Below the pieces are notes generated by a model. That model was not told the origin of the DNA. It worked only from the letters and a program-made list of their open reading frames with translations, and ran no database searches. This document shows, piece after piece, positions 31 through 5,003 of a DNA stretch of 64,000 nucleotides. This DNA comes from an uncultured Chloroflexia bacterium (lineage in GTDB: Bacteria > Chloroflexota > Anaerolineae > JAAYZQ01): contig CAVOXA010000010.1 of NCBI GenBank assembly GCA_963700285.1, positions 224,001 to 288,000 of the forward strand. The letters run 5' to 3'. Positions within the stretch are counted from its first letter, which is position 1. Each line of letters opens with the position of its first letter. The position numbers and the translations under genes are program-made.

Positions 31-2967
31 GTGAAGAATAGGGCAGAGATCCTCCTGGGCTTTATCGCGGCCGTCGTCGCCGGTATTCTGGTCGGCGTAT
101 TCTTGCGGCAGATCGCCGAGACGCTGGCCGGCTGGGCCAGCCGCCTTTTTCACTTTCTCTTTGACCGCTTTGCCAGCGCTCCCCTCTTGAGCCTGCGCTA
201 CGAGAAACGCTACCGGGAGACGCTGTCAGCCGCTCTCCAGACCCTGGCCTCGTCCAACATCGTGGACCGGGACGTACGCTTGGACCAGGTCTACGTGCCG
301 GTACAGCTCACGGAAGAGACCCAGCCTGGGGGAAGCACGACCTTCGAGGACCGCTTCCAGTGGGACGAGGACCGCCGCCGCCGGCAGCGCCAGCGTGCCG
401 TCGAGCCCTGGGATGCGGTGCGCCGCTTCCAGCGGCTGGTGGTCCTGGGTGAGCCGGGCGCAGGCAAGACCACTTACCTGCACCACCTGGCCTTCATGTG
501 CGCCCAGCGGAAGCGGCTGCCTGACTACACGCCCATCTTTGTCGAGCTGCGGAACCTGGTGGGTGCTGAGCGACTGGAGGACGCGCTGCCCGCCGAGTTC
601 GCCCGGCGCAGTTTCCCCAACGCCAGGCCGTTCATCGAGCGCCGCCTGGCGGATGGGCGCTGCCTGATCCTGCTGGACGGCCTGGACGAAGTGGAGAGTG
701 AGGCCCACCACCAAGAGGTGGTGTCGCTGGTAAAGGACTTTGCCGACCGGCACGCCCGCGATCCGGAACGCGACAGTGGCCCGCGCAACATCATCGTCGT
801 CTCCTGCCGCACCTACAGCTACGAGCACGGGCCCCAACTCGCCGGCTTTACCCGGACCATGGTCATGGACTTTGACGACCCGGCCATCGAGCGCTTTGCC
901 CACAACTGGTTCCGAGATGGGGACCTGCGCCCCCTGGCCGGCGAACTGCTGGCCGTCCTGGACAGCAACCGGCGCTTCAAGGAGCTGGCCCGCAACCCGC
1001 TGCTGTTGTTGCTCATCGTCTACCACTATGAGCGGGAGCGCAACCTGCCCGACCTGCGCGCCGAACTCTACCGCCACTGTATCCGAACCCGCATCACGCG
1101 CTGGAACGTGATGCGCGGCACACACCGCGGCCGTTTCGGCGAGACCGACAAGTGGCGCATGCTGCGTGATCTGGCCCTGGATCTCTACCGCCGGGAGGAG
1201 CAGGGCCTCATCGACCGGGAGACGCTGTTGGCCTGGCTCGACGTCTTTGCCGCTGGCCTCCGCCTGCCCGAGGGCATGAATCCGGCTGACCTGCTGGACG
1301 AGGTGGTCCGCACCAGCGGCCTTGTCCAGGAACGCGCCATCGAGCGCTATGGCTTTTCGCACCTGACCCTCCAGGAGTATTTTGCCGCCGAGGGGGTGGA
1401 CCGGCTGGGGGCGCAGGCGGGGGCCGCGCTCCTGGGCGAGCGCCTGCCCGACCCCCGCTGGCAGGAGGTGATCCTGCTCTACTGCGGCCTGGCCGACGAC
1501 GCCGCACCGCTGCTGCGGCGCGTCTTGCAGCGGACCGGGGACGATGGCCCCGACGCCTGGCTCCAGGCGGCGCGCTGCCTGGCCGAGGGCGCCCGTGTTA
1601 CCGACGACGAGGTCTGCCGCGAGGCGGCCCGCGGCCTGGTGGGCCTCCTGCGCGAGGTTGAGGCTGGCGATCAGGAAGCGCTCACCGCCGAGGAAAGCGG
1701 CGAGGTCGTCGCCTCCCTGCAGTCCTTTGCCGCCGCCGAGCTGCCCGGCCACGTGTCCACCCTGCTGGAGAGCCAGCAGCCCGGCGACGCCCTGCTGGCC
1801 GCCCGCCTGCTGCCGGAGGGGGCGAACGCCGAGCTGCGGGCTGAGGTCAGCCGCCGCATGGCCGCCCTGGCCAGCGGCGGGGAGACGGTCGAGCGGCGCG
1901 TGGCTTCTGCCGCCCTGGGCTGGATTGCCGGGGCAGACGCCAGCACGGTCGCCATCCTGCGGGCGGGTCTGGCCGACCCTGACCCCGCCGCCCGGGCCGA
2001 GGCCGCCCGCGCCCTGGGCCGCCTCGGGGCCAGCGACGAGCAGACCATCGCCGGCCTGCTGCAGATCTATGCCGGCGACCCGCATGACCCAGCCCGCCAC
2101 GCAGCCCTGGAGGCCCTGCTGGTCTTGGGTCGCGCCGCCGACCTGGGCCTGGTCCCGGTTCCCGCCGGCGAATTCCTAATGGGCAGCACGGAGGACGACC
2201 GTCAGGCCGGCGACAACGAGAAACCCCAACACCGCCTCTACCTGCCCGCCTACTATATCGACCGTACCCCTGTGACCAACGCCCAGTACCAGCGTTTCAT
2301 CGAGGCCGGGGGCTATGCCAGCGCCGCCTACTGGGCCGAGGCCATTGAAGCCAGGCACTGGAAGGACGGGGCCTATGTGGAGCATCAGGCATTCGGTGGT
2401 GAGCCCCGCAGGCAGCCAGTATACTGGGAAGAGCCCAAGTGGAATGCCAACGACCAGCCGGTGGTGGGCGTCTCCTGGTACGAGGCCCTGGCCTACGCCC
2501 GCTGGGCCGGCAAGCGCCTGCCCAGCGAGGCCGAGTGGGAAAAGGCCGCCCGCTGGGACCTCGAGGCCGGCCGCAGCCGGGCCTACCCCTGGGGTGATAC
2601 CTGGGATCCAGATCGTTGCAACACCGAGGAAGCGGGGGCGGGCCAGACGACGCCAGTTGGGCAGTTTTCGCCCCGGGGCGATAGCCCCTGCGACGCGGCC
2701 GATATGGCTGGCAACGTCTGGGAGTGGTGCAGCACCCGTTGGGGCCCTGCCTACCCCTACGATCCCGACGACGGACGCGAGGACCTGGCAGGCGGTGATG
2801 ACATTGGACGCATCGTACGCGGCGGTTCCTGGTATAATGACAAATCTCGGGCGCGTTGCGCCTGCCGCAACGGGGACTACCCGCTCGACTGGGTACAACA
2901 TCAGGGGTTTTCGCTGCTGTTGCGCCACGTCTTCTCCATCCCCCGGTTCTGGATCCTGAGGTTCTGA
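31..2967 (+). CDS. DGR target protein: N-terminal TM helix, NACHT NTPase, HEAT-like repeats, C-terminal FGE-sulfatase (CLec-fold) domain carrying the VR
   Basis: Walker A GEPGAGKT, Walker B LILLDGLDE, NPLLL and FSHLTLQEYFAA NACHT/WHD motifs. FGE motifs FLMGS, RLPSEAEWEKAA, DMAGNVWEW, RGGSW. An extra G in the VR shifts the last codons; the corrected end would be ...YNIRGFRCCCATSSPSPGSGS* at 2959. Confidence 0.9.
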   Translation: MKNRAEILLGFIAAVVAGILVGVFLRQIAETLAGWASRLFHFLFDRFASAPLLSLRYEKRYRETLSAALQTLASSNIVDRDVRLDQVYVPVQLTEETQPGGSTTFEDRFQWDEDRRRRQRQRAVEPWDAVRRFQRLVVLGEPGAGKTTYLHHLAFMCAQRKRLPDYTPIFVELRNLVGAERLEDALPAEFARRSFPNARPFIERRLADGRCLILLDGLDEVESEAHHQEVVSLVKDFADRHARDPERDSGPRNIIVVSCRTYSYEHGPQLAGFTRTMVMDFDDPAIERFAHNWFRDGDLRPLAGELLAVLDSNRRFKELARNPLLLLLIVYHYERERNLPDLRAELYRHCIRTRITRWNVMRGTHRGRFGETDKWRMLRDLALDLYRREEQGLIDRETLLAWLDVFAAGLRLPEGMNPADLLDEVVRTSGLVQERAIERYGFSHLTLQEYFAAEGVDRLGAQAGAALLGERLPDPRWQEVILLYCGLADDAAPLLRRVLQRTGDDGPDAWLQAARCLAEGARVTDDEVCREAARGLVGLLREVEAGDQEALTAEESGEVVASLQSFAAAELPGHVSTLLESQQPGDALLAARLLPEGANAELRAEVSRRMAALASGGETVERRVASAALGWIAGADASTVAILRAGLADPDPAARAEAARALGRLGASDEQTIAGLLQIYAGDPHDPARHAALEALLVLGRAADLGLVPVPAGEFLMGSTEDDRQAGDNEKPQHRLYLPAYYIDRTPVTNAQYQRFIEAGGYASAAYWAEAIEARHWKDGAYVEHQAFGGEPRRQPVYWEEPKWNANDQPVVGVSWYEALAYARWAGKRLPSEAEWEKAARWDLEAGRSRAYPWGDTWDPDRCNTEEAGAGQTTPVGQFSPRGDSPCDAADMAGNVWEWCSTRWGPAYPYDPDDGREDLAGGDDIGRIVRGGSWYNDKSRARCACRNGDYPLDWVQHQGFSLLLRHVFSIPRFWILRF
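2849..2929 (+). repeat. DGR variable region (VR)
   Basis: Aligns to 4578-4657 with 10 substitutions, all opposite TR adenines, plus a 1-nt insertion at 2891-2893. Confidence 0.95.
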
Positions 2968-3004: not shown

Positions 3005-3024
3005 GTGGGGGGCGTGCCCCCCAC
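3005..3024 (+). other. GC-rich hairpin downstream of VR (candidate DGR target-recognition stem-loop)
   Basis: GTGGGGGG-CGTG-CCCCCCAC: 8-bp stem, 4-nt loop. Confidence 0.55.
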
Positions 3025-3039
3025 CCGATCGCCCAGCCG

Positions 3040-3073
3040 AACCTCCCGCAGGTTTCTGAACCTGCGGGAGGTT
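3040..3073. repeat. Palindromic repeat, copy 1 (AACCTCCCGCAGGTT-N4-AACCTGCGGGAGGTT)
   Basis: Perfect 15-bp inverted repeat with a 4-nt loop; recurs at 4143 and 4524, with a variant at 4879. Confidence 0.95.
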
Positions 3074-3083
3074 GGAGATGCCC

Positions 3084-4193
3084 ATGAAGACCTACAAGAA
3101 TCTCTACCCGCGCATCTGCGCCTTTGAAAACCTGGAAATCGCCTTCCGCAAAGCGCGTCGCGGCAAGCGCCACAAGCCCAACGTCGCCGCCTTCGAGTGT
3201 AACCTGGACCTGGAGCTCCTCGATCTGCAGGACGACCTCCTCTCTGGAACCTACAGGCCCGGCGGCTACCGCCACTTTACCATCTATGAAGGCAAGCCGC
3301 GCCGCATCAGCGCCGCCCCTTTCCGCGACCGGGTGGTGCACCACGCTCTGTGCAATGTCATCGAGCCGATCTGGGAAGCCAGGTTCGTCCACGACTCGTA
3401 CGCCTGCCGCGCCGGCAAGGGCACCCACGCGGCCCTGGACCGCTGTACCCACTTTGCCCGGCGCTATCCCTACGTCCTGCAATGCGACGTCGTCCAGTTC
3501 TTTCCCTCGGTGGACCACGCCATCCTGCGTGACCTTCTGGCCCGCCACATCGCCTGCCGTTCCACCCTGAAGCTCATCGACCGGATCCTTGCCAGCGGCA
3601 CCGGCATACACAGCAAGAGCTACGAAATGCAGTGGTTCCCCGGCGACGACCTACTGGCTGCGACACGGCCCCGGGGCCTGCCCATCGGCAACCAGACCTC
3701 CCAGTTCTGGGCCAACGTCTACCTCCACGAACTGGACCGCTTTGTCAAGCAGACCCTGCACTGCCAGCGCCAGAGCCCTGCCTACCTGCGCTACTGCGAC
3801 GATTTCCTGCTCTTTGCCGGCGACAAGCCTACGCTGCACCGCTGGCGCCGAGAGATTGAGGGCTTTATGGCCACGCTACGTCTCAAAATCCATCCCCACA
3901 GGACCGTCGTCTACCCGGTCAAGAACGGCATCCCCTTTCTGGGTTTCAAGATCTATCCTGGTCACCGCCGGCTCAGGCGCTGCAACGGCGTACGCTTCCA
4001 GCGCCGCTTCCGAGCTCTGCTAGACTGCTACGCCACAGGCGAGATCGACCGAGAGCAGCTCGATGCCTCCGTCCGCGGCTGGGTGGCCCACACCTCCCAC
4101 GGCGACACCTGGGGATTGCGGCGCAGCCTACTCTCTCGCCACAACCTCCCGCAGGTTCGGAAACCTGCGGGAGGTTTGGATGGGCCACGATGA
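3084..4193 (+). CDS. DGR reverse transcriptase
   Basis: GLPIGNQTSQFWANVYL (DGR-type SQ motif), YLRYCDDF catalytic motif, PFRDRVVHHAL, FLGF. No endonuclease domain. Start placed at the ATG after GGAG. Confidence 0.95.
   Translation: MKTYKNLYPRICAFENLEIAFRKARRGKRHKPNVAAFECNLDLELLDLQDDLLSGTYRPGGYRHFTIYEGKPRRISAAPFRDRVVHHALCNVIEPIWEARFVHDSYACRAGKGTHAALDRCTHFARRYPYVLQCDVVQFFPSVDHAILRDLLARHIACRSTLKLIDRILASGTGIHSKSYEMQWFPGDDLLAATRPRGLPIGNQTSQFWANVYLHELDRFVKQTLHCQRQSPAYLRYCDDFLLFAGDKPTLHRWRREIEGFMATLRLKIHPHRTVVYPVKNGIPFLGFKIYPGHRRLRRCNGVRFQRRFRALLDCYATGEIDREQLDASVRGWVAHTSHGDTWGLRRSLLSRHNLPQVRKPAGGLDGPR
4143..4176. repeat. Palindromic repeat, copy 2 (inside the RT 3' end)
   Basis: AACCTCCCGCAGGTT-CGGA-AACCTGCGGGAGGTT. 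Confidence 0.95.
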
Positions 4194-4522
4194 AACAATC
4201 ACCCATCTTTGTCAAGCACTACGATCTTATGGCCTGGCTCATTCCTCGCACCCTGGCCTTTCCCAAGAGCCAGCGCGGGGTGCTGGCCCGCCAGGTGCAG
4301 AAGGAGCTATTTCACATCTATGAGATGCTGGTTGACGCGGGCATGGCCAATGATCCTTTGCCCCACCTTGCCGAGGTCGACAAGGGCCTCATCCGGCTGC
4401 GAACCTATCTGCGGCTGTGCCGCGACCTCAAGCTGCTGTCCATCGGCCAATACGAGCACGTTTCGCGCCTTGCAGCCGAGGTGGGAAGACTCTTGGGAGG
4501 TTGGATGCGATCCTGTGGATAG
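4190..4522 (+). CDS. avd: DGR accessory variability determinant Avd (four-helix bundle)
   Basis: 110 aa with PIF..YDL..W, FPK.QR..L and EVGRLLGGW motifs; ATGA overlap with the RT; next to the TR. Confidence 0.9.
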   Translation: MKQSPIFVKHYDLMAWLIPRTLAFPKSQRGVLARQVQKELFHIYEMLVDAGMANDPLPHLAEVDKGLIRLRTYLRLCRDLKLLSIGQYEHVSRLAAEVGRLLGGWMRSCG

Positions 4523-4523
4523 A

Positions 4524-4557
4524 AACCTCCCGCAGGTTTCCGAACCTGCGGGAGGTT
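4524..4557. repeat. Palindromic repeat, copy 3 (between avd and TR)
   Basis: AACCTCCCGCAGGTT-TCCG-AACCTGCGGGAGGTT. Confidence 0.95.
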
Positions 4558-4577
4558 CACCTTGGGGCCAGGCCGGA

Positions 4578-4657
4578 GGGCGCGTTGCGCCTACCGCAAC
4601 AGGAACAACCCGAACAACAGGAACAACAACAGGGGTTTTCGCTGCTGTTGCGCCACG
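4578..4657 (+). ncRNA. DGR template region (TR)
   Basis: AAC-rich copy of the VR (8 AAC codons, 21 adenines), outside any credible CDS. Confidence 0.95.
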
Positions 4658-4878
4658 CCTCCACCAGCATGGGTCAGAAACAGCCTCTGGTTCACGGACC
4701 CGGGGCCGGTGCCCGCGGGCTGCAGCTGCTACGCTGCAGTCCGATGGAGAAGACGATGCGGCCTGTCCCTGGCCACCTCCCCACACCCCAGCGGTGTGGG
4801 GGACGGCCGAATAGAGAATAGCCCCGCCTGGCCCAGTAGGCCCGCTCCGACATGCCGGGCGGGGCGCCTCGTCCACCG

Positions 4879-4959
4879 ACCTCCCGCAGGTACGTCCGGC
4901 TGTCCGGAGCCGGACGTACCTACCTGCGGGAGGTTTCCAATTTTGAACCTGCGGGAGGG
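4879..4959. repeat. Palindromic repeat, copy 4 (extended hairpin) plus a half-site
   Basis: ACCTCCCGCAGGTA...TACCTGCGGGAGGT at 4879-4934 with an inner stem; extra AACCTGCGGGAGG at 4946-4958. Confidence 0.85.
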
Positions 4960-5003
4960 TATGGTATACTCAGGCCGCACTGACAAGATGGGAGGGTACA
5001 ACG

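Follow-up and report, generated by a model that had tools for sequence, protein, structure and literature searches.

A chromosomal diversity-generating retroelement island hypermutates the C-type lectin site of a NACHT protein with predicted type I membrane topology

DNA of an uncultured Chloroflexia bacterium (a 64,000-nt stretch of contig CAVOXA010000010.1, called the window) carries a stand-alone chromosomal diversity-generating retroelement (DGR) island, by which the C-type lectin (CLec) site of a NACHT protein, predicted to have type I membrane topology, is hypermutated. The reverse transcriptase (RT), the accessory protein Avd and the template repeat (TR) are intact, the target has the order NACHT-HEAT-CLec, and the only other gene of the island encodes a RAYT-like transposase. 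By analogy with known immune receptors, the target is read as a likely one-gene intracellular anti-phage sensor-effector of inferred mechanism; this reading is tentative and is held at slightly less than even confidence. Coordinates are window positions (position 1 is the first letter), and negative values lie upstream of the window on the same contig. G000 denotes the source genome, G001 that of a sister species, L with a number a homologous locus and P with a number a homologous protein. The target and the DGR components are as follows:

1 to 2967, + strand: DGR target gene, with its ATG at −146 (G000:C10:223854); 1037 amino acids; assigned from the reading frame and the same start region in G001.
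Residues 1 to 23, + strand: predicted signal peptide (sequence pattern), lying outside the window together with most of the Pro/Thr-rich stub.
49 to 105, + strand: predicted single transmembrane (TM) helix, residues ~66 to 84 (hydropathy, alignment, helix in the model of a homolog).
433 to 918, + strand: NACHT NTPase core (PF05729, 42.5 bits, cut-off 26.7); Walker A and B intact.
After the NACHT core to about 1400, + strand: helical and winged-helix subdomains (invariant columns, NLRC4/NOD2 fold matches).
1861 to 2118, + strand: HEAT repeats (PF13646 HEAT_2, 40.6 bits, cut-off 27.7).
2149 to 2938, + strand: CLec domain of the formylglycine-generating enzyme (FGE) type (PF03781 FGE-sulfatase, 197.2 bits; domain model of a homolog).
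2849 to 2938, + strand: variable repeat (VR), with the initiation of mutagenic homing sequence (IMH) at its 3' end (match to TR).
2890 to 2894, + strand: one extra base relative to the TR (exact place ambiguous; VR/TR alignment), shifting the last CLec strand out of frame.
3005 to 3024, + strand: GC-rich hairpin downstream of the VR, similar in three other family loci and absent in G001.
3078 to 4193, + strand: DGR RT, intact, with the SQ and YxDD motifs (GNxxSQ and YCDD).
4190 to 4522, + strand: Avd (NF033474, 89 bits, cut-off 80; PF22296).
4578 to 4666, + strand: TR with IMH* (match to VR).

Adenine-specific hypermutation of the VR has occurred. Eleven of the 13 substitutions between VR (2849–2938) and TR (4578–4666) are at TR adenines, and the other two lie in the 3' IMH/IMH* end; within the 80-nt core, 10 of the 21 adenine sites differ and none of the 59 others. 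In G001 the locus is syntenic, 25 kb being ~90 % alike, and its VR is in frame; comparison of the two VRs gave differences at 17/21 TR-adenine sites and at 0/59 others (Fisher p 6e-14). The TR itself is identical in the two genomes (0/89 differences, versus 7–10 % in the flanks). A third allele was obtained from an Illumina contig of run X3 (a ~90 % relative), which spans the VR without the extra base; among the VR sites listed for it, 10 of 10 that are TR adenines differ. A search for reads of the source sample found none, the best run sharing 0.12 of the words, and the sequencing-run contigs aligned here are from relatives. Among 43 homologs, the VR has invariant columns (R, P, G, R) in alternation with columns of high variability, and the columns that match AGG codons of the TR are mostly R, G or W, which can be reached by A-to-N changes. 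With 12 core variable codons, the TR gives access to about 2.8e11 protein variants, and a stop codon is unreachable. RT and avd are located between VR and TR, and IMH/IMH* divergence is present at this locus along with the downstream GC hairpin. A search for remote targets of this TR found none, weaker matches having several non-adenine differences. An apparent swap of the CLec domain in G001 (71 % match) was rejected: it arises from frameshifts in the G001 assembly, and the DNA is 90 % alike throughout.

The earlier note, made from the letters of the window, had described the target as a TM helix, a NACHT NTPase with winged helix, HEAT-like repeats and an FGE/CLec domain ending in the VR of a DGR. 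The DGR is real, and hydropathy and the Pfam domain order (NACHT, HEAT_2, FGE-sulfatase) bore out this architecture, with repeats and an FGS sensor C-terminal to NACHT; what did not hold was an unbroken VR closing the CLec domain, since the extra base shifts the frame, and the note had misplaced the start codon and missed both the signal peptide and the frameshift. Walker A/B, sensor-1 and GxP motifs and the winged helix are all present, the NACHT motifs being invariant across the family alignment. About 40 full-length relatives (43–67 % identity) were found in metagenomes, the named ones being Chloroflexi/Anaerolineae.

Structure models were made for homologs, not for the window's own allele. 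The full-length in-frame homolog P0003 (64 % identical; mean pLDDT 84) was modelled with a disordered linker, a long TM/amphipathic helix, NACHT, a solenoid and CLec, and its Foldseek matches were FGE proteins, NLRC4 and NOD2. The CLec model of another homolog (pLDDT 95.6) superposed on the DGR target TvpA as far as the C-terminal end of TvpA (Z 25.0; 209 residues at rmsd 2.4), residues 1–256 aligning with TvpA 65–329; Z was 14.7 against Mtd. The VR spans the last strands of the homolog CLec model. In TvpA and Mtd the VR builds the binding site and the IMH encodes the last strand (PMC5006420, in part), so that the VR of the target would lie surface-exposed at the C-terminal binding site of its CLec domain. 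The alignment with TvpA is end to end, and the variable residues were not placed away from the CLec binding surface, in agreement with the first description.

The first letter of the window is already inside the target frame, which is open back to the ATG at −146. A start at GTG 31 overlapping the stop of an upstream gene, as first proposed, was rejected, no upstream stop overlapping it. The first hydrophobic segment (residues ~4–23) ends in A-L-A-Q (pattern A-x-A-Q) and is followed by the Pro/Thr-rich linker; the TM helix carries a small-xxx-G motif and is followed by a conserved amphipathic helix ahead of NACHT. The same leader-linker-TM head is present in G001, and 34 of 44 aligned family proteins have a hydrophobic leader that carries an x-x-[AG]-Q site (the other ten are seven N-terminally short entries and three variant motifs). 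Because the leader reads as a Sec signal peptide and the second segment as a stop-transfer helix, the target is predicted to be a type I membrane protein with a cleaved leader, a Pro/Thr stub of ~40 residues on the outside, a single TM helix and a cytoplasmic NACHT-HEAT-CLec part. The external stub contains a short hydrophobic motif, conserved in the family, that has one occurrence among the long frames of this genome.

As the first description had it, no enzymatic effector is visible in the N-terminus: neither a known enzymatic nor an adaptor effector was matched there by Pfam, NCBIfam or PADLOC (membership of the bacterial NACHT proteins does not require one), and the best match of an ESM Atlas search with residues 1–190 (0.84) is unnamed. 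Five of ten relatives picked for scanning carry TIR, SIR2, Mrr, DUF4062 or EAD1 N-terminal to NACHT; the leader-stub-TM head therefore occupies the position of an effector. Of 119 NACHT relatives, 41 score as signal peptide, Pro/Thr stub and TM helix (SP-PT-TM) and 27 more have a TM helix with the leader present or absent; in a FastTree tree the SP-PT-TM label falls in several lineages. Seven NACHT relatives (P0062, P0066, P0072, P0079, P0088, P0092, P0102) have a two-helix hydrophobic N-terminus, a candidate 2TM effector, and are interspersed in the tree with TIR, SIR2, DUF4062 and EAD1 versions.

The island measures 5.8 kb and comprises the RAYT-like transposase, target, RT, avd and TR. Upstream of the target lie the Y1/RAYT-like transposase (−786 to −208; NF047646 74 bits, below the cut-off of 80; PF01797 above cut-off), an Xer-like recombinase and an opposite-strand MoxR/DUF58/vWA/TPR operon; the earlier idea that a partner upstream provides the output found no counterpart among them. 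In 4 of 18 other xer loci the xer-like gene directly adjoins those genes which here lie downstream of the DGR (the small genes and an oxidoreductase gene), and the 5.8 kb in between were consequently taken as an island. A fifth locus (L197, G012:C10) has an RHH and PemK/MazF-like toxin-antitoxin pair at the same site, which suggests an insertion hotspot downstream of the xer-like gene; the remainder have other neighbours or reach the sequence end. Since the Xer-like recombinase is a core gene (19/23 family genomes), a prophage or integrative element moved by this tyrosine recombinase was rejected. No phage structural genes were found around the cassette, in line with the chromosomal, non-prophage, DGR-diversified NACHT-CLec protein first described and unlike a prophage DGR. 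The MoxR/DUF58/vWA/TPR operon, on the other strand and outside the island, does not form a MoxR-vWA ternary conflict system with the target. Both flanks are present at four loci (G000, G001, L025, L187; the sequences of L024 and L026 do not extend upstream), and at none of these four could an effector gene be recognised beside the target; the cassette occurs at three different sites. The target head domain was found in 4 of 401 genomes searched in the class, a patchy spread. A scan of viral contigs with a single N-terminal query, which detects close relatives only, found none. In profile scans of genomes and metagenomes, close loci made up 3 of 80 and 1 of 79 of the matches listed, the rest being generic NACHT patterns.

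In the mechanism proposed, which follows NLR and Avs biology, a phage-derived ligand would bind the variable CLec domain in the cytoplasm, and binding would lead to nucleotide exchange and NACHT oligomerisation. The oligomers would then cluster the TM and amphipathic helices into a membrane lesion, by which the infected cell may be depolarised or arrested. TM clustering is the simplest model, because no partner is present in the cassette and the head sits in the effector slot; the earlier suggestion of the TM helix as output gains indirect support, by analogy, from the domains that relatives carry in this slot. Plant CC-NLR resistosomes, which have no homology to the target, offer a functional analogy for the clustering of N-terminal helices at a membrane. 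A precedent for a TM effector clustered by its sensor is Cam1 (PMC10808066, in part); it is likewise a functional analogue (sensor-driven clustering of N-terminal helices at the membrane) and not a homolog, it senses cA4 via CARF, and pore formation by the present target is a proposal.

Several points weigh against the sensor-effector reading. The topology was called from sequence pattern and hydropathy, not from a SignalP-type prediction; the TM helix, clearly hydrophobic and poor in polar residues, may be a mere anchor; and over the NACHT module PADLOC gave just a weak 39-residue match. The neighbourhood is of housekeeping type and not a defence island, G000 and G001 are sister species and so are not independent contexts, and CLec-STAND proteins are uncharacterised according to the part of Doré 2024 (PMC10907252) drawn on here. 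If the frameshift is real, this allele lacks the last CLec strand and is probably inactive.

Because the VR is longer than the TR by one base, the assembled protein loses the terminal G[FVL]R strand, a late strand of the homolog CLec model; this motif is kept by 43 of 44 aligned family proteins, the sole exception being the present one. It is distinctly possible, though it falls well short of even confidence, that the +1 shift is real RT slippage at an AAC run and the cassette a decaying passenger of the RAYT/REP element, which is compatible with the other readings of the family. The extra base at 2890–2894 adjoins AAC, as do 74 % of indels according to Wu 2018 (PMC5758913, in part), where frameshifting VR indels are given for 11/372 DGRs, and the rest of the target, RT and avd are free of frameshifts. 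At the genome's own rate, a chance assembly error in 89 nt has a probability of just about 3 %, similar to the 11/372 frequency of frameshifted VRs. Against a dead allele stands the error-rich assembly: a codon-model Viterbi analysis counted 108 intragenic frame switches (79 of them +1) in 327 kb of G000 coding DNA, compared with 4 in 52 kb at loci of four other genomes, and extra bases account for 10 of the 12 G000/G001 shifts that could be assigned. The extra base can also be counted as lengthening of a G run, the VR keeps its frame in both G001 and the X3 contig, the TR is the same in both species, and a lesion would be overwritten by retrohoming. On account of the shift direction (+1), the G run and likely read heterogeneity at the VR, an assembly error is considered somewhat more probable than RT slippage. 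Single-base insertions are frequent in the G000 and G001 assemblies (for G000, about 0.3 per kb), which calls for caution with split genes of G000.

A defence sensor whose TM helix is a membrane tether, surveying phage entry or membrane-bound phage proteins and acting through a separate effector or signalling protein in trans, is possible but somewhat doubtful. It would suit a hydrophobic TM helix without a polar face and the other NACHT-FGE genes of the same genome, and adaptor-type bNACHTs that recruit other effectors have been described (bioRxiv 2022.07.19.500537, in part); however, Pfam detected no EAD/death-like adaptor in the N-terminus, and the cassette occupies three unrelated sites with no recognised partner gene. 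A role outside phage defence is unlikely: as a filamentous bacterium's receptor for signals from kin, partners or the envelope, the target would relay a cue through the external stub and tune the binding of cellular proteins through CLec. The family-wide conservation of the hydrophobic stub motif, the cleavable leader (an unusual investment for a purely cytoplasmic sensor) and the housekeeping neighbourhood speak for such a role; the patchy distribution, the RT loss in L025 and the nuclease/TIR/SIR2 head exchange in relatives are in keeping with conflict systems instead, and the diversified CLec domain is predicted to be cytoplasmic and so could not contact neighbouring cells. That the target is a formylglycine-generating or sulfoxide-synthase enzyme, as the source names of homologs in databases have it and as the best sequence and fold matches (FGE, EgtB, CalU17; FGE/EgtB scoring above TvpA/Mtd) might suggest, is highly improbable, given that the family profile lacks the Cys-containing stretch that follows GGS in FGE, EgtB/SenA/OvoA scores are far below cut-off and the equivalent surface is hypervariable.

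A palindrome resembling repetitive extragenic palindromic (REP) elements has six full copies in the genome, five of them in the island. The copies within the window, strand not assigned, are as follows:

3040 to 3073: REP-like palindrome, with further copies at −842 and −202.
4143 to 4176: REP-like palindrome inside the RT 3' end (palindrome copy search).
4524 to 4557: REP-like palindrome just before the TR (palindrome copy search).
4879 to 4960: REP-like palindromes in degenerate form, at the island's right end (palindromes; empty-site comparison).

The palindrome flanks the transposase and separates the DGR genes, and it is absent in other family loci. In G001 and three marine-sediment contigs the GC hairpin is missing after the VR and the palindrome stands directly there instead; it might serve as homing hairpin. 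RAYT-like genes in G000 lie beside NACHT-FGE genes in 3 of 3 cases (G000:C10:223214, 1334105 and 1496779), a count given without a statistical test of association; in two other genomes (G019:C244:4939 and G031:C75:5769) the distance from a RAYT-like match to an FGE gene or DGR RT is about 1 kb or less, most other matches being unchecked. A literature search found no description of a RAYT-DGR association.

An RT downstream of the target is also present in L024, L025 (as a remnant), L026 and L187; in L025 (7165–7300) it is shrunk to its fused ends, with the target still intact and in frame. Elsewhere in the source genome, a second DGR-type RT (G000:C1:1725069–1729224, − strand; 58–60 % identical) is preceded by a Ser/Thr-kinase-like gene and by two FGE genes whose N-termini resemble leaders. 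A third, truncated RT (G000:C14:612100–616600, − strand) runs into an AAC-rich TR remnant and lies behind a frameshift-ridden NACHT-FGE gene. Two NACHT-FGE genes (G000:C10:1333450 and 1337755) have a common backbone with VR-like differences at their 3' ends; an AAC scan found no matching TR for them, and they are possible orphan DGR targets. Among RNA runs, a contig identical over avd 4257–4497 had a depth of 2.6, too weak to show expression, and many AAC-rich TR-like contigs from other DGRs matched window positions 4510–4676 in run X8 (summed depth 293; these may be DNA-derived).

NACHT-FGE DGR targets have already been proposed as antigen sensors: STAND-FGS proteins with DGRs were described by Kaur 2021 (PMC8195603), FGS-type antigen-receptor NACHTs were named in the Kibby 2022 preprint (bioRxiv 2022.07.19.500537), such targets are likewise treated in Doré 2024 (PMC10907252), and FGE sensors are listed in a 2026 STAND survey, all four sources being drawn on in part. 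As in the FGS antigen-receptor NACHTs of Kibby and Kaur, the layout is tripartite (NACHT, HEAT, FGS) and accompanied by a DGR RT and a four-helix accessory protein; the N-terminal heads listed there are, in contrast, enzymes or adaptors, with TM regions given as multi-pass sensors. TvpA (Treponema denticola) and Mtd (Bordetella phage BPP-1) have the same FGE-subclass CLec domain with a C-terminal VR, but are a surface lipoprotein and a phage tail protein, respectively, both without an NTPase, whereas the present CLec domain is predicted to be cytoplasmic.

Named near matches of the RT are mostly Chloroflexi/Anaerolineae. In the excerpts of Doré 2024 used here, Chloroflexi DGR RTs fall in clade 5D, in which they are basal and which includes membrane-associated targets. 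The target of the present DGR is STAND-CLec by Pfam, as in clade 5D. The STAND-CLec DGRs of that clade (Thiohalocapsa PB-PSB1 DGR3/DGR6) are alike in being chromosomal and in fusing NACHT to a VR-bearing FGE-type CLec domain, and the clade also has palindromic repeats and transposases near DGRs and many targets with uncharacterised N-terminal extensions; target 2 of DGR3 is predicted to be periplasmic. Unlike the Thiohalocapsa DGRs, the present one has one target instead of two and no protease, EAD or TIR neighbour, and its target has a signal peptide, a Pro/Thr stub and one TM helix, with HEAT repeats between a NACHT and a CLec part that are both predicted to be cytoplasmic.

No description of an effector-less NACHT-FGE family with a leader and a single N-terminal TM helix was found in the parts searched of the texts (including Kaur, Kibby, Doré, the 2026 STAND survey, PMC3521204 and PMC11661182), although Table S1 of Kibby may list the family. 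Within those texts the general class is known, which limits the surprise, and the signal-peptide/single-TM head in the effector slot is the new part. It is possible, if doubtful, that the Anaerolineae-type family consists of secreted-leader single-pass NLRs, each a complete adaptive immune receptor in one gene that has its cytoplasmic lectin site rewritten by a DGR (about 1e11 variants), forms a resistosome-like TM pore and moves as a ~5-kb cassette (here with a RAYT/REP module). According to the consulted part of Doré 2024 (PMC10907252), no DGR-diversified NACHT-CLec protein has been tested experimentally. A single gene without a partner, with dozens of natural VR alleles and an intact RT-Avd-TR set, is for this reason a simple handle on whether bacteria have hypermutated immune receptors, and the type I membrane topology, if true, would be a new output for bacterial NLRs.

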